Assembly: GCA_964453605.1 (NCBI GenBank) | Contig: CAYVOI010000001.1 | Location: 484,095-548,094, forward strand | Direction: 5' to 3' | DNA length: 64,000 nt | From: an uncultured Gammaproteobacteria bacterium | GTDB lineage: Bacteria > Patescibacteriota > Patescibacteriia > Veblenbacterales > UBA10138 | Shown: positions 6,413-24,757 of the stretch, one piece after another | Position numbering within the stretch: the first letter of the stretch is position 1 | Layout of the letters: the number at the start of each line of letters is the position of its first letter | Program-made: the position numbers and the translations under genes | Notes under the pieces: generated by a model | What the model was told of the DNA's origin: nothing | What the model saw: the letters and a program-made list of their open reading frames with translations, nothing else | The model's database searches: none

Positions 6413-7717
6413 ATGGCAGCAGGTGGTGAGGCGGTGGCACTGGCGTTCTGGGGTTCACTCGTGGTGTGGGGGCTGTGGGCCTACACCCGGCGCGCCTGGG
6501 CTGTTTTTCTGCTCCTGGCGTTACTCCCTACCTACCTGTGGCGGGGCGAGGTGTTCGGCATTCCGACAACCTGGTTTGAGCTGGCGCTCTACCTGGCGGC
6601 GGCCTCATACCTACTACACGGTGATGTCGAGCGCTACGCACTAGGCCGCGTACCTTTTCGAGCTCTGGTAGGCCCCCTGCTGTGGCTGGGGGCGGCGACT
6701 TTAGCTTTGCTGGTGGCCCCCGACACCCGCCTGGCCTTAGGTGTGTTTAAGGGCTGGGTAGTTGACCCATTGCTTTTTTGCTACCTGCTCTGGTTGGCCT
6801 ACCAGCGCATAGCTGAACCAACCCGTTACCTACGCTTGGTAGTTGGCTTTCTGTTCATGGGGGCTACTGCCACGAGCGCTTCTGCGCTGGTGGCAGGCTT
6901 TATGAGCGGTTTAAGTCGTTTTGGTGCTTGGTACGACTCACCAAATGTGTTGGCCATGTACCTAGTTCCTAGTGTAGCGGCTGCTGGGCTCTGGCTTTAT
7001 CCCCAAGCTAGAGGGGCTACGCTAACGACGTACCAGCTGTACCTGTGGTGTGCTGGTGTGCTCATAGTGCTGGCAGGTGTGGTAGCTACAGGCTCCTATG
7101 GCGCGTGGCTGGCGGTGGTGGCAGCGGTAGGAGTGGGCTGGTTGTATACTAAACCAAAATGGCAGGCGGTAGCTCGCTCGGCTGCTGCGCTCGCAGTACT
7201 GGTCGGGCTGCTGCTACCGTGGGTTATGACAGCCTATGGCCGCTGGGTGTTCCCTGGCCACCGTAACCAAACGTATAGTCTAACTTCAGGCCAAGTTCGG
7301 CTGGTACTCTGGCGCGAAGCTACGCGGCTCGTGACCCAGCACCCGGTCCTAGGTATTGGCTTAGGCCAGTGGCAACCGGTGTTTACCTCCCACATTCAGC
7401 CCTACCTGCCGGAAGCCCGCCAGCCTGGCTACTCGATTGAGCTCTACTACGCGAGCCTCTTTCCGCATAACCTGTGGCTCACCACGTGGTTAAGCCTTGG
7501 TCTCCTGGGGCTTGCGGGGTTACTCTGTACTGCCTGGTACGTTTACCGAGCCCCCCCGCCAACCTTACCGACGGTAGTAGCTGTAGCGCTATTTACTGCT
7601 ATACTAGTACAGGGTTGGTTTGATACGCCAGTGTTTAAGAACGATCTCGCCGTGCTCTTCTGGCTGCCGCCACTCCTCGTAGCTTGCCAGAGCATTACAT
7701 CTTATGCTGAACTATGA
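6413..7717 (+). CDS. Polytopic membrane protein, O-antigen ligase/polymerase-like (Wzy_C-type)
   Basis: 434 aa with about 10 TM segments. A central loop with SRFGAWYDSPNVLAMYL resembles the O-antigen ligase domain. This is a tentative assignment. Confidence 0.5.
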   Translation: MAAGGEAVALAFWGSLVVWGLWAYTRRAWAVFLLLALLPTYLWRGEVFGIPTTWFELALYLAAASYLLHGDVERYALGRVPFRALVGPLLWLGAATLALLVAPDTRLALGVFKGWVVDPLLFCYLLWLAYQRIAEPTRYLRLVVGFLFMGATATSASALVAGFMSGLSRFGAWYDSPNVLAMYLVPSVAAAGLWLYPQARGATLTTYQLYLWCAGVLIVLAGVVATGSYGAWLAVVAAVGVGWLYTKPKWQAVARSAAALAVLVGLLLPWVMTAYGRWVFPGHRNQTYSLTSGQVRLVLWREATRLVTQHPVLGIGLGQWQPVFTSHIQPYLPEARQPGYSIELYYASLFPHNLWLTTWLSLGLLGLAGLLCTAWYVYRAPPPTLPTVVAVALFTAILVQGWFDTPVFKNDLAVLFWLPPLLVACQSITSYAEL

Positions 7718-8718
7718 CGCCCAACACGTTGATAGGGCATGCCCAGGTTGTTAGGTACCTCGACGGTGCTCGGCAGCGTAATGAGCTAGCACACGCCTAC
7801 CTGCTCCAGGGTCCGGAGCACGTGGGTAAGGCTACCCTCGTGCGTGAGTTTTTGCAGGGGCTCTTCTGTGAGGCCCCGCCAGTCCCGTGCGGTAGGTGTG
7901 CTGGCTGCTGCCACGTAGCAGCTGCTACGCACCCGGACGTGTGGTGGGTTCAAGTAACGGCTGGTAAAACGCAGGTAGGTATTGAGGACGTTCGTGAGCT
8001 CATTCGTTTTACCCAGCTGACCTCACTCACGGGGCCCTGGCGTGTGGTGGTGCTGCCGGACGTGGCCGCACTTACACCGGAAGCTGCTAACGCACTGCTC
8101 AAGGTGCTGGAGGAGCCTGGCCCGGGCGTACTCTTTTTTCTGCTTGACCACCACCACACGTCGGCACTTGCTACCCTCCGCTCTCGCTGTGTGCTCCTCG
8201 AGCTGGGCCCGGTGCCGGCGCGTGAGCTCGTGGCGGGTTTGCTGGCGCACGGCGTACCAGGAGCAGAGGCTGAGGAGCTTAGCCGCCTGGCCGCAGGACT
8301 CCCGGGGTTAGCCCTGAGCTTGTGGGCTGACCCGACCGTGCTGGAGCGCGCGTACGGTCTGGCTCAGGTATGTGTCAGTCTCTTTACCCCTGGTACATGG
8401 CCTACCTTCCAGCGCTTTATTGAAACTACCCACGGCCAGGCGGCCCGAGAAGGGGACAACCAGCCAGTCGAGGCCATGGCTACCGTGTCGGTATGGCTCG
8501 AGGTGGCGCGTGACGTGCTCCTGGTGCGCTTAGGCCTGCCGAGCGCCGTCCGTTACCAAAAGCTTGACCGCGAGCTACATGTAGTAGCAGAGCGCTACAG
8601 CGTGCTGAGCTTACTCAAGCTCTGTGGGCTCATGAGGCGGGCGTTGCAGAAGCTTCAGGCCAACGCTAACCCGCGCTTAACGCTGGAGTGGCTCGGGCTA
8701 AGCATTTCACACCTATGA
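7714..8718 (+). CDS. holB: DNA polymerase III delta' subunit
   Basis: N-terminus LAHAYLLQGPEHVGKAT is an AAA+ clamp-loader P-loop. The Zn module CGRCAGCCHVAAATHPD and ...SRCVLLEL (SRC) are delta'-like. It overlaps the upstream gene by 4 nt. Confidence 0.75.
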   Translation: MTPNTLIGHAQVVRYLDGARQRNELAHAYLLQGPEHVGKATLVREFLQGLFCEAPPVPCGRCAGCCHVAAATHPDVWWVQVTAGKTQVGIEDVRELIRFTQLTSLTGPWRVVVLPDVAALTPEAANALLKVLEEPGPGVLFFLLDHHHTSALATLRSRCVLLELGPVPARELVAGLLAHGVPGAEAEELSRLAAGLPGLALSLWADPTVLERAYGLAQVCVSLFTPGTWPTFQRFIETTHGQAAREGDNQPVEAMATVSVWLEVARDVLLVRLGLPSAVRYQKLDRELHVVAERYSVLSLLKLCGLMRRALQKLQANANPRLTLEWLGLSISHL

Positions 8719-16820: not shown

Positions 16821-16895
16821 GTGGGGTAGGTAACACAACCTAAATGCTAAAAGCCCTGGGGCCCCTGCCCAGTGACACCAAAGGAAAACACACGT

Positions 16896-17627
16896 ATGCC
16901 AAATGACAGTAAACTTTCACTCGTGTACCAGTTGGTTGAGGCCGCGCGCAACAACCTTGAAACTGCTACACAGCTTTTAAGTTCCCTGGGCGCTGGTAGC
17001 GACGGTACGCCTTCTGCATCCATGAAAGCCCACCCAGGTGGTAGTGTACAGCACACGGAGGCAGGCGCGGTTATTATTGAGGGCGTGTTCGACGGGCAGA
17101 ACATGGTTGGCCCAGACGGTAAACTCTATAGCGTGCCAGCTAACTACGCTTCAAAATCCAAACTGGTTGAGGGTGACCTCTTGAAACTGACCATTAGCCC
17201 TGACGGATCATTTATCTATAAACAGATTGGCCCGGTTGAACGCGACCGGGTGGTCGGCGTGCTGGCGCATGATGACGAAACTGACGAGTACCGTGTTCTC
17301 GCCAAAGGCAAATTCTACAAAATACTGCTCGCCAGTGTAACCTACTTTAAAGCCGACGTCGGGGACGAAGTGGTGGTACTGGTGCCTAAGGGCACCACCT
17401 CATCGTGGGCAGCTGTGGAAAACGTTATGAAGAAGAACAGCCCCACGCCGCTAGCTACCATGTCTCCCGCGACTGCAACCCACACGGTAGCTATACCTGA
17501 GGCTACACCAGTAGCACCTATCCGCCGCGGCCCGGGCCGGCCACGTAAGAACCCGGTGGCCCCTACCGCAGCCAAGGCAGAGGGCACATCGGCGCAGCCT
17601 GCCCCGCCACCGGGTATTGATTTCTAA
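16896..17627 (+). CDS. Hypothetical protein with C-terminal AT-hook (RRGPGRPRKNP)
   Basis: ORF with GGAA ribosome-binding site before the ATG at 16896; the track ORF starts at a GTG at 16872. The C-terminal GRP core flanked by basic residues is an AT-hook DNA-binding motif. Confidence 0.5.
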   Translation: MPNDSKLSLVYQLVEAARNNLETATQLLSSLGAGSDGTPSASMKAHPGGSVQHTEAGAVIIEGVFDGQNMVGPDGKLYSVPANYASKSKLVEGDLLKLTISPDGSFIYKQIGPVERDRVVGVLAHDDETDEYRVLAKGKFYKILLASVTYFKADVGDEVVVLVPKGTTSSWAAVENVMKKNSPTPLATMSPATATHTVAIPEATPVAPIRRGPGRPRKNPVAPTAAKAEGTSAQPAPPPGIDF

Positions 17628-19372: not shown

Positions 19373-19565
19373 CTCTGTGCGGGAGACGCGGAACCATGGT
19401 TTTCCCCGTATGTATGGGCTAGCGTATAGTTTGGGGTTTGCCTGTCCGCCGTAGCGTATAGCGTAGGCGGAAATCCATGCCTCCCAGCCACGAAATTTGG
19501 TTATCGGACGACCCGAGTACCTCGGGTAGCCAAGTGTCGGTAGCCAGATCGAGTGGCAACCAATT

Positions 19566-19602
19566 ACAACACCCCGCCATATGGCGGGGTGTTGTGCTAT
19601 TT
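19566..19602 (+). terminator. Perfect 30-nt palindrome ACAACACCCCGCCAT|ATGGCGGGGTGTTGT followed by a T-rich tract
   Basis: 15-bp perfect stem followed by GCTATTT. Confidence 0.45.
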
Positions 19603-19660: not shown

Positions 19661-19689
19661 TTGACAAATTTATCAATATATACTACTAT
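19661..19689 (+). promoter_or_regulatory. Strong sigma70-like promoter (TTGACA, 17 nt spacer, TACTAT) driving the small Cys-protein gene
   Basis: Consensus -35 TTGACA at 19661-19666 and -10 TACTAT at 19684-19689, in an AT-rich upstream region. The SD AAGGAGGTG lies 7 nt before the ATG at 19787. Confidence 0.5.
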
Positions 19690-19786
19690 ATTGCAAAACT
19701 CAAGAATTGTACTTGTTAAGTGTTTTAACGAGTAGTTCTTGGAGAAAATGGTCTTTCACAAAAGAACAAGAAAGGAGGTGAATACC

Positions 19787-19975
19787 ATGTTCCGGCAGAC
19801 CCACGAAAAAGGCATCGTCAAGTTGTGCGGTACTCAGGGTTGTTGTCCCACCGTCGACTTCACGGATTCCCAGCAAGTCGTCCTGCGCGACGACTTCGGT
19901 GGACAGGTTCAACTCACGCGTGAGCAGTGGCAGGATCTGAAGGTCAAGTTCGCTTCGAAACCGGATCAGAAGTGA
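19787..19975 (+). CDS. Small Cys-containing protein (63 aa), candidate substrate or partner of the downstream radical SAM enzyme; sequence pattern resembles DUF397
   Basis: MFRQTHEKGIVKLCGTQGCCPTVDFTDSQQVVLRDDFGGQVQLTREQWQDLKVKFASKPDQK. Consensus SD. The track ORF starts at 19739, but the RBS-supported start is 19787. Two hairpins follow, one with a T-run. Confidence 0.6.
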   Translation: MFRQTHEKGIVKLCGTQGCCPTVDFTDSQQVVLRDDFGGQVQLTREQWQDLKVKFASKPDQK

Positions 19976-20014
19976 TCTGATTTCGGTCTCGTGCACGATA
20001 CCGAACCATAATTG

Positions 20015-20050
20015 CCCCTAGCCACAAATGGTAGCTAGGGGTATTTTTTA
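20015..20050 (+). terminator. Intrinsic terminator/attenuator between the small-protein gene and the radical SAM gene
   Basis: CCCCTAGC-cacaaatggta-GCTAGGGG followed by TATTTTTTA. The rSAM SD AAGGAGGTG starts 13 nt later. Confidence 0.55.
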
Positions 20051-20078
20051 CCAAAACAAAAACTAAGGAGGTGTCATC

Positions 20079-21410
20079 ATGTGGTCACAGTATCTTCGGA
20101 TACGAGAAAGGAATGGAATCGTGGCATTGTTCCACGAACTCCATCCCGACCCCGCCTACTGCTCCAAGGAACAGTGGACGAACCTGCGTAGTGGGATCAC
20201 TGATGGCGCTGAAATGCTTGTCAGTGATCTCAAAAAACGAAAACTGATAGTCGATTCTTCCGACGACGATAGTTGTGAGCTTGAGAGAATTACAGTTAAA
20301 CTTGAACGCAAGCTCAATCAACCGACAATTCTCTATCTCATGACGGCTCAGGGGTGTAATTTCGAATGTGGGTACTGTCCTGTGCCGGAAACCGCAAGGA
20401 GACACGGTGCTTCCTTGTTGTCTGTTGAAGATGCGATTGCTGGCATTGAGTTGTGGCAAAAGCATTTGAAGGACGTTTATGATCCAACCCTGCAATATTT
20501 CGTAATCTTCTACGGTGGCGAGCCTCTTCTGAATAAAGAGACGATCAAGGCTTCGCTTTCACGTTTGAAGGTGAAAAAAGAAGCAGGAGATCTGCCAGAA
20601 AATATCAGTTACATGATCGCCACAAATGGCGTTCTTATTGATGATGAAACCATTGTAATGTGCAAACAGTATCGCGTAATGGTAGCGGTAGGCCTGGACG
20701 GTCCAAGGGAGCTGAATGATGCTTTGAGGGTTGATAGTGATGGGAACGGTACTTTTGACCGCACTATCGCATCAATAAAGCGTCTTGTGGAAAATGGAAT
20801 CAGAACGTCCGTATCGGCGAGCATAACGCCATCTAATGTTGACCATATTTCTGAGTACTCGTCCTTCTTTAGGAATCTTGGGGTCGAGAAATTCGGTTTC
20901 AATTTTCTGAAGGGGCGTATGCTTATAAAGCTGGTTGGACATAACGGTGTTGAAGATTACTATCGAAGGGCTTCCCAAGGAGTAGCTGAAAATGCCCGAA
21001 GGCAGGATAGTCCTAGCTTTGAATACCAGATGGAGAAAAAGCAGTTAGCATTTGATAGTGGTGATTTTTACCCTGTTGACTGCACTTGCTATGGGAATCA
21101 ACTGGTAATCCAGCCTGACGGACAGGTGTCAAACTGTCCATTTTACAAATCATGGCTTGGACACATCAAGTGTGTAAGCGATGATTTTCGCATCTGGAAT
21201 CAGGAAATCGTGAAAGAGTGGAGAAAGAGGCTTCCTCTTTACCATCAGGGAGAGGCAAAAGCAATCAGTGGTGGTGGATGCGCCTGGAGTTCAACAGAGC
21301 TTAAGGGTGACTCATCTGCCGCCGACGACTCAAGTCAAATTTTTTCCGAGGAGATGTTAAATGAGCTCATCTGGTCTCGATATGCCCGGCTCTGCACTCA
21401 GAAAACCTAA
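20079..21410 (+). CDS. Radical SAM enzyme with C-terminal SPASM/twitch-type Cys-rich domain and about 85-aa N-terminal extension (candidate peptide-modifying maturase)
   Basis: CNFECGYC (CxxxCxxC) at residues about 93-100. Glycine-rich SAM motif FYGGEPLL. C-terminal cysteines CTCYGN...SNCPFY...IKCV...GGGCAWS. The N-terminal 85 aa before the rSAM core could be a peptide-recognition (RRE/PqqD-like) element. Confidence 0.85.
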   Translation: MWSQYLRIRERNGIVALFHELHPDPAYCSKEQWTNLRSGITDGAEMLVSDLKKRKLIVDSSDDDSCELERITVKLERKLNQPTILYLMTAQGCNFECGYCPVPETARRHGASLLSVEDAIAGIELWQKHLKDVYDPTLQYFVIFYGGEPLLNKETIKASLSRLKVKKEAGDLPENISYMIATNGVLIDDETIVMCKQYRVMVAVGLDGPRELNDALRVDSDGNGTFDRTIASIKRLVENGIRTSVSASITPSNVDHISEYSSFFRNLGVEKFGFNFLKGRMLIKLVGHNGVEDYYRRASQGVAENARRQDSPSFEYQMEKKQLAFDSGDFYPVDCTCYGNQLVIQPDGQVSNCPFYKSWLGHIKCVSDDFRIWNQEIVKEWRKRLPLYHQGEAKAISGGGCAWSSTELKGDSSAADDSSQIFSEEMLNELIWSRYARLCTQKT

Positions 21411-22215
21411 GCTTGGGATCATCGGTGGCTCCGGGATATGTTCATTCTGCGAGCTGAAGGTAATCTCCACAGCTAGGCCTGAAACAAAGTACGGTTTTCC
21501 GTCAGATGATGTTTTGATCTGTGAATATGAAGGTCAGCTTGTAGCTTTCCTTCCACGGCATGGGTCTAAACACAACATTGTACCGCACAAGGTGCCTTAC
21601 AAGGCAAATCTTGCCGCACTTAAGGGTCTTGGTGTCGAATATGTGGTCGGAACATGCATTGTTGGGAGTTTGAAAAAAGAAATTGTTCCCGGTAGTGTGG
21701 TTCTGCCCGATCAGTTCGTGAACTTAACCTGGGGTCGTGACGATTACACAGAAGCAGATGGTGGTTCATTCATTCATCTGCCTATGGGGGAGCCATACTG
21801 CGGTCATCTTCGAGCGAAAATATTCGAAGTTGCGAGTGGTATCTCCTTACCGATTGTTAAACAAGGCACAGTGGCTGTAATTCAAGGTCCACGATTCTCA
21901 ACTGCGGCAGAGAGCCGGTGGCTTTCCGGCAACGGATGGGGCATCGTTAACATGACCCAATATCCTGAGTGCTACTTAGCCCGAGAACTGGGCCTCTGTT
22001 ACGCGGCGATAGCTTCGGTGACCGACTACGATGTTGGCCTTCAGGAAAGTCTAGTTATTGATCCGAGACGAATGGGTAAAGTTCTTGAGGTTTTTAAGGA
22101 TAACATTCGCACGGTCAAGATTCTACTGCAGGCTTTTATCAAGAAATCTGTATCCGGACTGTCGTGTAAGTGTGCCTCCACAGTGCTGAAAGCATACTAT
22201 GAGGAATCCTTGTGA
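21361..22215 (+). CDS. MTAP/PNP-family nucleoside phosphorylase (5'-methylthioadenosine or 5'-deoxyadenosine phosphorylase)
   Basis: KLGIIGGSG, LPRHGSKHNI, GIVNMTQYPECYLARELGLCYAAIASVTDYD are MTAP-type motifs. SD GAGGAG. The start lies 50 nt inside the 3' end of the rSAM gene. Confidence 0.8.
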   Translation: MSSSGLDMPGSALRKPKLGIIGGSGICSFCELKVISTARPETKYGFPSDDVLICEYEGQLVAFLPRHGSKHNIVPHKVPYKANLAALKGLGVEYVVGTCIVGSLKKEIVPGSVVLPDQFVNLTWGRDDYTEADGGSFIHLPMGEPYCGHLRAKIFEVASGISLPIVKQGTVAVIQGPRFSTAAESRWLSGNGWGIVNMTQYPECYLARELGLCYAAIASVTDYDVGLQESLVIDPRRMGKVLEVFKDNIRTVKILLQAFIKKSVSGLSCKCASTVLKAYYEESL

Positions 22216-22361: not shown

Positions 22362-24035
22362 ATGATAAAAGCACAAAAACTTCGGAAAAGCTACGGCTCA
22401 CTAACCGTGCTTTCTGACGTCTCCTTCTCCCTCGGGCGAGGACAGAAGGTGGCGTTGGTTGGTCACAATGGTACAGGGAAAACGACCCTATTAAAAATCG
22501 TGGCTGGTCTTGAGACTAAAGATGCTGGCAAGATTGAGATGCCAACTGACACTTGCATTGGCTATCTTCCTCAAGACACCAGCTTGTCCGAGGATAAATC
22601 TATAATGGGTTATCTCCAGGATGAGTCTGGGATCAGTGCTCTTGAAAGAGAGCTAGAGGGCCTATCTGTAGACTTGAATGATCCAGTCAAAGCCAGACGC
22701 TATGGAGAAGTTTACAGTAGGTATGAGCATCTTGGCGGCTATACTTTTGTTCATCGAGCAACGATAATGCTGGCAGGATTCGGACTCGACAGTATCGGGC
22801 TCGATCGGTCACTGTCTAATCTAAGCAGTGGCCAAAAAAGCAAGGTTGTCTTGGCTGGTATTCTGTTAAAAGGAGTTGATCTTCTTTTACTGGATGAGCC
22901 GACCAACAATCTTGATCTTCCAGCTCTCATCTGGCTGGAGGACTTTCTAAGGAAATCAGATGCGTCATGTATTGTGGTTTCTCATGATCGAAGATTTTTG
23001 GATCGAGTCGTGAAGAAAATCTTCGAACTTGATTGGTATTCGCACTCGCTAACCATAACCGGAGGCACTTATACTGATTATCTGAAAATGATGGCAGGGC
23101 GCATTGCTAGTCAAAAAGAGAAATACAGACTCCAACAGGAAGAAATCAGTCGCCTAAATGAACGAGCTCGTGAGAGAAAGGCAGATGCTGTAAGTGGTTC
23201 TCGATGGGCTGGAAGCGATAACGATAAGTTCCTGAGAGGGTTTAAACGAGATCAAGCCGCTAAATCCTCAAAGGCTGCCAAAGCTATCGAGAAGCGCATC
23301 GAACAAATGGACAAGGTGGAAAAGCCAATGGAAAGAAAACCATTTGAGATACCCCTCGATGCCCGAGTTGATTCGGGGGCTCTCAATGTAAGGGTCACTG
23401 ATGTCACCGTAGGCTATCTGGAATTTATTGTGGGTCCTCTTTCTTTCGAGATTCGTTATGGCAACAGGGTTGGCATACTGGGCTTGAACGGCACAGGAAA
23501 GTCAACCTTACTCAAAACCATTACCGGGGAGATGAGGCCAGTAAGCGGGTTTGTCGAAATCGGTTCAGGCATCAGAATCGGAAATATGATGCAGGAGCAT
23601 GAGACACTTCCCCGCGAACAGACTCCTCTCGAATTTCTCTCGGAACGATCGGGCTTAAGTCACCAAGACTCCTACTCGAAGCTTTCAAAGTTCGGGTTTA
23701 ACGAGAGACAGGTCGGGTTGCCGATAAATACCCTCAGCCCTGGTGGTCGTGCACGTCTTCTCCTTGCACTTTTCTCGGCTCAATCAGTCAATATGCTCGT
23801 GCTCGATGAGCCTACGAACCATCTTGATATTGAGGCTTCGGAAGCTCTTGAGGAGACATTGCTAAGCTATCGAGGGACAGTGCTTCTCGTCTCGCACGAC
23901 AGATATTTCCTCGAAAAAGCGTCTCTCGATGCCACTTACGTGTTGTCTGATGGGGTGCTTACTAGAATCCCTGATTACAAGACGTATGTCGAAACTGCGG
24001 AGGAAAAGGCAAGAAAGCTGCTTAATCTTCTGTAG
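22362..24035 (+). CDS. ABC-F family ATPase (tandem ABC domains, no TM domain)
   Basis: Two Walker A motifs (GHNGTGKTT, GLNGTGKST), two ABC signatures (LSSGQKSKV, LSPGGRARL) and two Walker B motifs (LLLDEPTN, LVLDEPTN). A charged linker lies between the domains. SD AAGGAG. An extended -10 TGGTATAAT is at 22325. Confidence 0.85.
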   Translation: MIKAQKLRKSYGSLTVLSDVSFSLGRGQKVALVGHNGTGKTTLLKIVAGLETKDAGKIEMPTDTCIGYLPQDTSLSEDKSIMGYLQDESGISALERELEGLSVDLNDPVKARRYGEVYSRYEHLGGYTFVHRATIMLAGFGLDSIGLDRSLSNLSSGQKSKVVLAGILLKGVDLLLLDEPTNNLDLPALIWLEDFLRKSDASCIVVSHDRRFLDRVVKKIFELDWYSHSLTITGGTYTDYLKMMAGRIASQKEKYRLQQEEISRLNERARERKADAVSGSRWAGSDNDKFLRGFKRDQAAKSSKAAKAIEKRIEQMDKVEKPMERKPFEIPLDARVDSGALNVRVTDVTVGYLEFIVGPLSFEIRYGNRVGILGLNGTGKSTLLKTITGEMRPVSGFVEIGSGIRIGNMMQEHETLPREQTPLEFLSERSGLSHQDSYSKLSKFGFNERQVGLPINTLSPGGRARLLLALFSAQSVNMLVLDEPTNHLDIEASEALEETLLSYRGTVLLVSHDRYFLEKASLDATYVLSDGVLTRIPDYKTYVETAEEKARKLLNLL

Positions 24036-24091: not shown

Positions 24092-24757
24092 ATGATTAGA
24101 TCAGAACGTATAGCCAAAAAAATAAACGAACACATAAAGGTGTGGTCAAAAGATCATGCTAAATTGATCGTGGCTATTGACGGCTATGCTGGATCAGGGA
24201 AAACCACCGTTGCTGATTTTATTGCTAAACAAAATTTAGATGTGCTGGGGGTGCATTTGGATGACTTCATAAATCATTGGAAAGATCGGAAACGAATGAT
24301 AGAAACAGCGAAAGACAAATCCAAAGTATTTGAATACAACTGGTATAGATATGGGGACTTAGAAAAATTAGTCAAAGATTTTAAAGCTGGCAAAAAATCA
24401 ATAAAATTCAAAATTTACAACTACGACAAAAATAACCTCGGTCCTCAAAGGTTATTTGATCTTTCAAAAAAGATTCTGGTCATAGATGGTATTTTTCTTT
24501 TTCATCCGGCTCATAAATTAAATATGAATTGGGATAAGACAGTATATCTTGATGTCGATTTTGCCAAAGCGGACAAAAAAAGAGTTGCCCGGGAAAGAGA
24601 AAAATGGGGCAAGGAATATATATCAGAAAACCATCCTGACAATTGGACAAGATACTACAAGGAGGCATATCGCAGGTACGTAAAGGAGTATAAACCTCAA
24701 GAGGGCCGAGACCTTGTTTTTAAGAACGGTAGGCTGTTAGCTCGACAGAAAATCTAG
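24092..24757 (+). CDS. P-loop nucleoside/nucleotide kinase, uridine kinase/PRK family-like
   Basis: AIDGYAGSGKTT (Walker A) and LVIDGIFLFH, like the uridine kinase LIVEGI block. 221 aa. It has the lowest GC of any gene in the window. Confidence 0.65.
   Translation: MIRSERIAKKINEHIKVWSKDHAKLIVAIDGYAGSGKTTVADFIAKQNLDVLGVHLDDFINHWKDRKRMIETAKDKSKVFEYNWYRYGDLEKLVKDFKAGKKSIKFKIYNYDKNNLGPQRLFDLSKKILVIDGIFLFHPAHKLNMNWDKTVYLDVDFAKADKKRVAREREKWGKEYISENHPDNWTRYYKEAYRRYVKEYKPQEGRDLVFKNGRLLARQKI

Follow-up and report, generated by a model that had tools for sequence, protein, structure and literature searches.

What is the target of a radical S-adenosylmethionine (SAM) enzyme that is encoded just downstream of a small Cys-rich gene? 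This question is raised by a locus on contig CAYVOI010000001.1 (assembly GCA_964453605.1), of which we analyzed a stretch of 64,000 nucleotides, here called the window; coordinates are positions of this stretch unless a locus is named, and the genes and elements of the module described below lie on its + strand. A previous reading made from the sequence alone (the sequence-only reading) had taken the genome for a Patescibacteria-like one, and its similarity to the Candidate Phyla Radiation (CPR) was confirmed. We propose that the product of the gene just upstream, a protein of 62 aa, receives a post-translational modification from the radical SAM enzyme, a model that, taken in full as stated below, we give an even chance. 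A radical SAM maturase paired with a ribosomally made substrate is an already known kind of system; the new aspects are the folded DUF397-like family as putative substrate, an enzyme clade with, as its sequences indicate, a single auxiliary cluster, the obligatory coupling to a gene for an MTAP-type phosphorylase, the association with an ABC-F ATPase and a kinase, and a distribution centered on the CPR. Neither the small protein nor the enzyme family nor the RNA elements are covered by a model of Pfam, NCBIfam, PADLOC or Rfam, and no description of the pairing or of the module was found in the literature searched, which agrees with the sequence-only reading, where the pairing was not recognised as characterised. 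The genomes of CPR bacteria (Patescibacteria) are tiny and carry few biosynthetic extras, so that a five-gene module kept across many of their classes likely matters to their biology.

The small gene and the radical SAM gene are linked in both directions

The small gene (19787..19975) is an ATG open reading frame (ORF) containing KLCGTQGCCPTV, and it is preceded by the Shine-Dalgarno sequence AAGGAGGT at 19772..19779, which was read directly, is conserved in the upstream alignment, and had already been described as perfect; the product, previously given as 63 aa, has 62 aa when the gene is translated. The gene encoding the radical SAM maturase (20079..21410, 443 aa) was identified with PF04055 (3.5e-17, 63.5 bits against a cut-off of 29.5), and its own Shine-Dalgarno, again AAGGAGGT, is found at 20065..20072, where GGAGG is conserved in the alignment of 31 loci (A7) that was also used for the spacer RNA. 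The homologs of the small ORF form 39 clusters with 63-100% identity, in which 17 positions along the entire length of the protein are invariant, and an exhaustive profile search retrieved 307 representatives, nearly all of 50-70 aa; the small ORF is a real gene.

Loci were collected from both partners, with the enzyme yielding 77 genome loci and the motif CGxQGCCPT of the small protein 80 metagenome loci (subset alignment A5), and linkage was counted by hidden Markov model scoring over 111 distinct loci. The small gene is present in the same locus for 90 of the 92 radical SAM genes of the family and, reciprocally, a radical SAM gene lies within 250 nt of the small gene in 83 cases out of 100, and within 3 kb in 91. 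Neither the small gene nor the MTAP gene was found in 26 loci carrying a distant radical SAM gene of other families (identity of 33% or less; 0/26). The sequence-only reading had admitted that homologs of the small ORF might not be found beside radical SAM genes elsewhere, and the linkage observed in both directions over about 100 loci removes this doubt. The upstream neighbors vary from locus to locus (dnaX and tRNA-Gln in the window; SLT, HIT, tRNA synthetases and others elsewhere); therefore, the block acts as a unit and its cohesion is not simply inherited gene order.

The enzyme is related to peptide maturases

The characters that the sequence-only reading had assigned to the enzyme gene, i.e. 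a second perfect Shine-Dalgarno, a CxxxCxxC motif, FYGGEPLL and C-terminal Cys residues, were all found between 20065 and 21410. Invariant Cys were called from an alignment of 36 family members with 51-100% identity (A3), and they are limited to C93, C97 and C100, which form the CxxxCxxC (nt 20355-20378), and to C335, C337, C353 and C401 in the C-terminal domain (nt ~21066-21293); a fifth C-terminal Cys of the window enzyme, C365, is not conserved. This domain had been read as SPASM (PF13186/TIGR04085), which is defined by seven or eight Cys for two auxiliary [4Fe-4S] clusters, including Cx2Cx5Cx3C. Pfam SPASM (PF13186) scores 17.8 bits, below its threshold of 21.5, and in the profile alignment with the maturase CteB the Cys residues of the Cx2Cx5C of this protein are missing and only the last one (GGGC401) is kept. 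Since only four C-terminal Cys are invariant and the CteB ligands for the second cluster are missing, the sequences indicate one auxiliary cluster, and the domain is better described as half-SPASM/twitch-like. A single cluster would be compatible with the arrangement Cx10Gx4C (C337...G348...C353) plus C335 and C401, and a beta-hairpin is predicted at residues 341-351 in the AlphaFold model.

The model of the enzyme obtained with AlphaFold2 has a predicted local distance difference test score (pLDDT) of 92. Its first ~80 residues (nt 20079-20318) include three strands (6-11, 14-19 and 26-29) and three helices (30-37, 45-53 and 61-79), whose block-mean pLDDT lies between 90 and 96; the beta3-alpha3 order of residues 6-79 is the topology of PqqD and of the recognition element (RRE) of peptides that are synthesized ribosomally and modified post-translationally (RiPPs). 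A full-length alignment of the model was obtained with two RRE-bearing enzymes, CteB and TigE, and we refer to the predicted domain as RRE-like; it occupies the place where the sequence-only reading had expected such an element. Within this domain the residues H19-E20-L21-H22-P23-x-P25 (FHELHPDP; 20133-20153, residues 19-25), plus S3 and W33, are invariant. This conservation is unusual for an RRE, and the HELHPxP motif could be a docking or metal-binding site for the small protein.

The best NCBIfam match of the enzyme is the FibroRumin maturase TIGR04136, which aligns residues 15-409 with model positions 14-426 of 458; with 141.5 bits against a cut-off of 400, the enzyme is not a member of this family, whose partner peptide family is also different. 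About 25 further peptide-maturase families, among them PapB, YhhB, AmcB, CcpM, QhpD, SCIFF and anSME, match at 52-92 bits with cut-offs of 300-855. Judged by these scores the enzyme is maturase-like and a member of no curated family. In a PDB profile search CteB came first (1e-20), and Foldseek with the model also placed CteB first (E = 5e-19, full length), followed by TigE, ChlB, anSME, SkfB and SuiB. The earlier assignment to the peptide-maturase type is thus borne out, since the top NCBIfam matches are all RiPP maturases and the closest structures are of this kind.

By sequence profile and by fold, the closest known systems are the CteB/SCIFF-type maturases (PDB 5wgg, 5why), with which the enzyme shares the order of an RRE-like N-terminal domain, a radical SAM barrel and a C-terminal Fe-S domain, and the locus shares a Cys-rich substrate candidate encoded immediately upstream. 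However, the identity to CteB is only ~17%, the SCIFF model TIGR03974 scores 72 bits against a cut-off of 425, and the Cx2Cx5C ligands of the second auxiliary cluster are missing throughout the family; in addition, the presumed substrate here is a folded 62-aa DUF397-like domain and not a short leader-core peptide, and MTAP, ABC-F and kinase genes are attached to the module. A shortened SPASM-like domain with a single auxiliary cluster, as indicated for our enzyme, is known from SkfB, a peptide thioether maturase, and in other twitch enzymes, but the similarity is weak (E = 7e-7, TM-score about 0.46-0.52) and the Cys spacing of our enzyme differs (CxC...Gx4C...GGGC). A precedent for a thioether from Cys to Asp or Glu is given by QhpD/QhpC and by PapB; QhpD and PapB match the enzyme at 82 and 92 bits, far below their cut-offs of 453 and 340, and neither a quinohemoprotein context nor a peptide with Cx3D repeats is present here.

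The match to anSME (76.6 bits), its structural closeness, the match to QhpD (82.3 bits) and the label 'AslB' given to homologs in some database sources could be taken to mean that the enzyme is a sulfatase maturase of the anSME type, or a cofactor maturase of the PqqE/MftC/QhpD type, with the small ORF adjacent by coincidence. To this explanation we attach almost no credence. The scores are far under the cut-offs of 349 and 453 bits, the ~25 maturase families all lie equally far from this one, and the second auxiliary cluster of anSME is missing; no gene for a sulfatase, a quinohemoprotein, or a PqqA- or MftA-like peptide is linked to the enzyme, whereas the small gene nearly always is. On the grounds of scores, cluster and gene context this identity was rejected.

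The small protein is a divergent branch of the DUF397 superfamily

In the broad family of the small protein C14, C20 and D36 are invariant, and L13, C19, P21, D35, G39 and V41 are kept in at least 90% of the members. The protein is predicted to be a folded ββββα domain (pLDDT 84), and the comparison of this model with the PDB by Foldseek gave no significant match. One representative of the profile search (P0160, 116 aa) carries the domain as a tandem duplicate, in which copy 1 has the full CGAQGCCPT and copy 2 has a single Cys (GHNCYLRIDF), as in ordinary DUF397.

The sequence-only reading had noted a likeness to DUF397, and this likeness holds for the superfamily but not for membership in the Pfam family. 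In Pfam and NCBIfam scans of the small protein and 39 close homologs neither DUF397 nor any other family was detected, and the window protein does not match PF04149 at E ≤ 10, the gathering threshold being 24 bits. Its best relatives score 13-16 bits, under this cut-off, and five of 11 actinobacterial members linked to the radical SAM gene also give sub-threshold matches. The relationship is visible only by profile-profile comparison and through these actinobacterial intermediates: a profile of 71 diverse family members could be aligned, along nearly all of the domain, with one built from 30 true DUF397 proteins (hhalign probability 69.7%, E = 4e-5), and the actinobacterial proteins, which end in ...EWxGFLAKAKSGELD, gave 96.3% (E = 1.8e-9, 37% identity). 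With a narrow alignment (A1) the probability was 2.4%, which is uninformative.

The DUF397 family is characterized by the motifs KSSYSG, CVEVA and VAVRDSKxP (PMC10294661), which in the small protein are altered to LCGxQG, CCPTV and VVLRDDFGG. Among the invariant positions, C20 coincides with the Cys of CVEVA and D35 with the Asp of VRDSK, and G39 and W48 also coincide; the family is set apart by C14, which is an invariant Ser in DUF397, and by C19, P21 and D36, i.e. two extra Cys, one Pro and a second Asp. These comparisons place the small protein within the DUF397 superfamily, as a divergent branch enriched in Cys. The two groups are of similar size, as DUF397/BldB paralogs have about 60-70 aa. 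They differ in their partners: DUF397/BldB proteins form oligomers and have WhiJ/XRE regulators as partners (PMC10294661), the small protein a radical SAM enzyme; no Xre or HTH_3 gene lies beside the small gene in the gene calls of the window and of loci L001-L011. They also differ in distribution, mainly the CPR bacteria for the small protein, in contrast to the DUF397-Xre pairs, which are specific to actinobacteria and whose DUF397 members were once predicted to be toxins (PMC2701414). The overexpression of 14 DUF397 proteins in Streptomyces caused no toxicity (PMC10364602). The link described here connects the opaque DUF397/BldB family to a testable chemistry around its one invariant Cys. 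To our knowledge, no biochemical function is known for any protein of the DUF397/BldB family.

Conserved promoter and RNA elements surround the small gene

A sigma-70-type promoter, TTGACA-17-TACTAT, is present at 19661..19689 and matches the consensus at 10 of 12 positions, as the sequence-only reading had proposed. Of 99 distinct loci, 45 carry the strict motif TTGACA-N16-18-TAnnnT upstream of the small gene; in random windows of the same loci its frequency is 1.9%, and in shuffled sequences 0.5%. The 5' leader of ~90 nt (19696-19770) forms a long two-tier hairpin in all the loci tested, even though the sequences differ. In the window the long stem-loop spans 19700..19741 (-18.5 kcal/mol, z = -2.64), and similar hairpins were seen in five other loci (L014, L016, L019, L092 and L101) with z from -0.95 to -5.8. 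RNAalifold on an automatic MAFFT alignment of the leaders yielded no consensus structure, and we claim no covariation for this element, which could act as an mRNA stabilizer or as a regulatory leader.

The spacer between the two genes (19976-20078) has a folding energy of -29.1 kcal/mol (z = -5.05) and carries two hairpins, where the sequence-only reading had described a single hairpin with a T-run; what it had described is conserved and covaries. Hairpin 1 (19982..20005) lies directly 3' of the small-gene stop and has a 10-bp helix whose core is the palindrome CATCGTGCACGATG in many loci; it is 78% paired, with compensatory changes at 9 pairs. Hairpin 2, whose stem recurs as CTAGCCAC...GTGGTTAGG, has a 13-bp helix (20013-20043) that is 96.7% paired, with compensatory changes at 10 pairs, and including its U-tract it extends over 20013..20050, in the manner of an intrinsic terminator or attenuator. 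About half of the loci have a perfect T-run after it, and most have a U-rich tract. Measured over the 31 loci of A7, compensatory changes were found at 19 of 23 pairs and 88.9% of the cells are paired, against at most 43% in slid controls, and none of 500 shuffles reached the observed pairing or covariation. The attenuator that the sequence-only reading had proposed is reasonable, given the U-rich tract after a covarying helix. The conservation of the two hairpins at the sequence level exceeds what a plain terminator needs. In the actinobacterial loci the hairpins are absent and the spacers have 14-17 nt. Rfam searches at gathering and E-value thresholds assigned no family to the leader, the spacer or the gap between the upstream tRNA and the promoter, and returned sub-threshold, terminator-driven matches only.

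Proposed modification of the mini-protein

In the model that we favor, the consensus promoter, the structured leader and the strong Shine-Dalgarno would make the small protein abundant, and the terminator-like hairpin would let only part of the transcription into the enzyme genes, giving much substrate and little catalyst. The mini-protein would be docked through the N-terminal RRE-like domain; SAM would be cleaved at the C93/C97/C100 cluster, and the resulting 5'-deoxyadenosyl radical would abstract an H atom from the mini-protein, while the single auxiliary [4Fe-4S] cluster (C335, C337, C353 and C401) would help to form a cross-link. The likeliest product would be a thioether from Cys S to Asp C, joining the Cys loop (C14, C19, C20) to the Asp-Asp turn (D35, D36). 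A translationally coupled MTAP would then remove the inhibitory 5'-deoxyadenosine and recover the adenine. The candidate reactive residues are the family-specific C14, C19 and D36, plus C20 and D35, which are shared with DUF397.

We take the small protein for the substrate because the relatives of the enzyme modify peptides or proteins, because the enzyme has a predicted docking domain, and because the small gene is the only universally linked non-enzyme gene and appears to be set for expression in excess; for this last point, the promoter and the covarying terminator-like hairpin, both conserved, would be the stoichiometry signal expected for a substrate. The Cys-to-Asp thioether is our best guess for the chemistry, and a tentative one that we hold to be somewhat more likely wrong than right; it is favored since the Cys and Asp residues are family-specific, the thioether-forming CteB, PapB, QhpD and SkfB are relatives, and the auxiliary cluster seems to be single. 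Known from QhpD is that a small protein can be stapled and yet stay a functional protein, without being released as a peptide. Given that the module includes no protease or exporter, and that no conserved protease or transporter gene was detected across about 100 loci, we expect that the product would likewise stay in the cytoplasm as a stapled mini-protein and not as a released peptide. The classical leader-plus-core RiPP of the sequence-only reading is a poor fit, given the conservation over the full length, the predicted fold and the lack of a protease or exporter in the module. If the model is right, radical SAM enzymology would gain a putative pair formed by an RRE-bearing maturase with a single auxiliary cluster and a folded mini-protein, with a built-in clearance of 5'-deoxyadenosine; the components are all small and soluble.

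Several observations weigh against this model. The small protein is predicted to be a folded domain without a distinct leader, unlike the typical clients of RREs, and the Pfam PqqD/RRE model does not match the enzyme even at E ≤ 1. The proximity of the Cys and Asp residues would follow from the beta-meander topology of the predicted fold only. With four invariant Cys the auxiliary cluster may be fully ligated, unlike that of CteB, where the substrate Cys reportedly binds an open iron site of the auxiliary cluster. The three Cys and the Asp could equally be a metal or Fe-S site. Furthermore, the fold is not always tied to this enzyme family. A distant relative, P0290, adjoins an unrelated gene, and in locus L113 (1567-2785) the gene after a typical small gene codes for another radical SAM protein, shorter than that of the family, and the next one for an ABC-F; this radical SAM protein has CNLNCSYC, is devoid of the RRE-like N-terminus, and scores 34 bits with the family profile. 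L113 may represent a non-orthologous replacement or a chimeric contig.

Some of these points lead to another explanation, in which the small protein would bind a metal or an Fe-S cluster through its three Cys and one Asp and act as an electron donor, a scaffold or a regulator, the true substrate being elsewhere. Counting C14, C19, D36 and the ancestral C20, the small protein offers exactly four potential ligands; a compact domain conserved over its full length suits such a role, and the DUF397 relatives of the protein work through protein-protein interactions with regulators (PMC10294661). The absence of an evident open site for a substrate thiolate in an enzyme with all four auxiliary Cys invariant points the same way. 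On the other hand, the adjacent C19 and C20 would be awkward as ligands of one cluster, the enzyme bears the RRE-like domain expected for substrate recognition and its characterized relatives all modify peptides or proteins, the strong promoter with a terminator behind it implies that the small protein is made in large excess, as suits a substrate better than a redox partner, and no other candidate substrate gene is conserved nearby. On balance we regard a partner role as unlikely, and retain the small protein as the putative substrate.

The MTAP gene is coupled to the radical SAM gene

The module extends beyond 21410, where the sequence-only reading had set its right boundary, thereby missing the conserved MTAP, ABC-F and kinase genes. 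The gene for the MTAP-type nucleoside phosphorylase (21361..22215; PF01048, 4e-34) overlaps the radical SAM gene by 50 nt, and where the sequence allows the observation the two genes are adjacent or overlapping in 72 of 73 loci. The protein scores just under the NCBIfam cut-offs (TIGR01694/NF005876 models, 249.2 against 274.85 and 266.7 against 306 bits), matches the archaeal MTAP 1v4n with 4e-55, and keeps the motifs GIIGGSG, FLPRHG, EGPRFST and VTDYD relative to 1v4n and 1wta; it is thus a clear homolog of the methylthioadenosine (MTA) phosphorylases (MtnP/MTAP), from which it differs by its translational coupling to one particular radical SAM gene. We know of no report of such a coupling. 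It has been described that radical SAM enzymes form 5'-deoxyadenosine as a by-product and are inhibited by it, and that MTA phosphorylase (MtnP) takes part in its salvage (PMC8102628). Judged by its motifs, the window MTAP probably clears 5'-deoxyadenosine.

A different use of this gene would follow if the radical SAM enzyme acted on a nucleoside, or adenosylated its substrate, and the MTAP-like enzyme and the kinase processed the product, leaving the small protein as a carrier or regulator. Radical SAM enzymes are paired with enzymes of the purine nucleoside phosphorylase (PNP) family in the hopanoid (HpnH/HpnG) and futalosine (MqnE/MqnB) pathways, and self-resistance to ribosome-targeting nucleoside antibiotics is commonly provided by an ABC-F protein paired with a kinase. 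The strict coupling of MTAP and radical SAM genes and the recurrence of a nucleoside-kinase-like gene, for which an APH-fold kinase stands in actinobacteria, are consistent with such a pathway. Nevertheless, the enzyme is unrelated to HpnH and MqnE and groups with RRE-bearing peptide maturases, the MTAP motifs are the canonical ones that would go with free MTA or 5'-deoxyadenosine as the substrate, many loci lack the kinase, which was retained in locus L120 after the deletion of the other genes (see below), and it is the small protein whose gene is most tightly linked to the enzyme. We consider this pathway very unlikely. The specific possibility of an HpnG/MqnB-like processing of an adenosylated product by the PNP gene was ranked below the salvage of the by-product, as the canonical MTAP motifs are intact.

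The ABC-F and kinase genes, and a possible link with translation

Downstream of the MTAP gene, an ABC-F ATPase of the ribosomal-protection-like type is encoded at 22362..24035 (NF000355, 417 bits against a cut-off of 380). It has two ABC_tran domains and ABC_tran_Xtn, and no membrane domain, and it falls below the cut-offs of the specific antibiotic-resistance (ARE) families Msr, Vga, Lsa, Sal, OptrA and the producer type; it may be a housekeeping translation factor. The ABC-F of the actinobacterial locus L045 scores best with the producer-type model TlrC/CarA/OleB/SrmB (452 bits), and for both proteins the EttA models score lower than the ribosomal-protection/ARE models. An ABC-F gene is present in 35 of the 41 loci with at least 2.5 kb after the radical SAM gene, and absent from several loci, e.g. 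L010. The type of this recurrent ABC-F suggests a testable link with translation.

The next gene (24092..24757) encodes a P-loop kinase of the PRK/Udk family, nucleoside-kinase-like (PF00485, 3.5e-14), whose nearest structures are 1rz3, NRK1 and uridine kinase. It follows the ABC-F gene in many CPR loci, and in L141, L144, L154, L156, L159 and L170 it directly follows the small gene; it likely belongs to the module, with a weaker case than the other genes. A PADLOC search with the module proteins gave only generic matches of the radical SAM enzyme (pVip, 36 bits) and of the ABC ATPase, and none for the small protein, the MTAP or the kinase; with no specific model matched, a known anti-phage defence system was discarded.

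These genes bring up a possible role for the product that is compatible with the proposed chemistry, namely that the modified mini-protein is a ribosome toxin, an antibiotic-like effector or a translational regulator, and that the ABC-F, and perhaps the kinase, shields the ribosomes of the producer or counters the mini-protein. The ABC-F gene follows the small, radical SAM and MTAP genes (the trio) in most CPR loci, it is still clustered with them when the order is rearranged, and it is again adjacent, in other positions and orientations, in high-GC loci; the best scores of both ABC-F proteins come from ribosomal-protection/ARE models, variable tailoring genes for a P450, PhyH or a 2-oxoglutarate (2OG) oxygenase give the loci the appearance of a biosynthetic gene cluster, the fold of the small protein resembles those of the single-stranded nucleic-acid binders PUR, Whirly and PC4, and there is the former prediction of DUF397 proteins as toxins (PMC2701414). 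In the opposite direction, the ABC-F may have an independent housekeeping role instead of being a dedicated part of the module, because both it and the kinase are retained in L120, where the trio is lost; it may be maintained by inherited gene order, and L010 does without it. The module has no exporter, and the overexpressed DUF397 proteins were not toxic in Streptomyces (PMC10364602). We consider such a role quite unlikely. In its boldest form, which we judge to be just as much of a long shot, the stapled DUF397-fold mini-protein would act on the ribosome or on RNA, either as an endogenous translational brake or as an effector against a host, often actinobacterial, and the ABC-F, in some lineages with the kinase, would be a dedicated counter-measure. 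If true, the DUF397/BldB superfamily would have its first biochemical activity, protein effectors made on the ribosome and cross-linked by an enzyme would form a new class, and the retention of the module in genome-minimised CPR bacteria would be explained.

Distribution and rearrangements of the module

The family was found in Saccharibacteria, Parcubacteria/Paceibacteria, and Zambryski-, Uhr-, Giovannoni-, Berkel- and Kerfeldbacteria. Locus L169 (28% GC) is fragmented when read with genetic code 11, and with code 25 (UGA = Gly) it gives an intact radical SAM protein (469 aa), MTAP and ABC-F; judged by this reading, the module is also present in lineages of the Gracilibacteria/Absconditabacteria type. 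The claims on taxa beyond the CPR rest on the high-GC loci (contigs with 61-69% GC), of which L045 and L046 are labelled Pseudonocardiales. Actinobacteria are the hosts of cultivated Saccharibacteria (PMC10633639), and some of them share the module. In L126, L129, L134, L137, L139 and L140, which are high-GC loci, genes for a PhyH-family dioxygenase and an APH-fold kinase stand between the small and the radical SAM genes, and in actinobacterial loci the APH-fold kinase replaces the P-loop kinase. Among the high-GC loci with enough upstream sequence, the ABC-F gene is adjacent in L045, L046/L124, L129, L134 and L137, and not in L139. The low-GC locus L125 has an inserted cytochrome P450 gene and L009 a 2OG-Fe(II) oxygenase gene after the MTAP gene; together with PhyH and APH, these insertions look like lineage-specific tailoring of the kind seen in biosynthetic gene clusters. 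In L045 (Pseudonocardiaceae) a 437-aa ORF (6661-7974), with no match in Pfam or NCBIfam, has its start overlapping the MTAP stop and may be a further component of the module in that lineage.

The genes remain clustered when they are rearranged. In L141, L144, L154, L156, L159, L160, L170 and also L041, the small gene and the kinase gene are convergent to those of the ABC-F, the MTAP and, presumably, the radical SAM enzyme. In L120 (metagenome contig Ga0209211_10084791) the 3' end of the small gene is fused to the last MTAP codons, the radical SAM gene and most of the MTAP gene are deleted, and the small ORF has an aberrant C-terminus, with the ABC-F and kinase genes intact at ~70% DNA identity to the window. 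This suggests that the trio was lost as a unit, with an assembly artefact as another possible origin.

The GC content is 46% in the radical SAM gene, 48% in the MTAP gene, 47% in the ABC-F gene, 36% in the kinase gene and 56% in the small gene, against 54% in the window, and the radical SAM protein is 80% identical to that of a Parcubacteria metagenome-assembled genome (MAG) with 35% GC (L012). The identities of the radical SAM proteins do not follow the taxon labels, which suggests that the module has been passed horizontally between CPR lineages.

Other features of the region

Upstream of dnaX, at 16872-17627, a 251-aa ORF with no match in Pfam has a C-terminal tail rich in Pro and Ala. The ~230 nt between tRNA-Gln(CTG) and the small-gene promoter (19374-19600) are unannotated and end in a strong terminator-like hairpin, CCCCGCCATATGGCGGGG, at ~19572-19590; this stretch may be a small RNA, or no more than a terminator for dnaX and the tRNA gene. 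Doubtful MAG labels ('Fibrobacter', 'Gammaproteobacteria', 'Bacillota') are attached to CPR-type modules in L013, L024, L047, L050, L051 and L048, the last of which shares with the Saccharibacteria locus L004 its neighboring genes for Peptidase_S66 and a histidine-kinase-type ATPase (HATPase_c).

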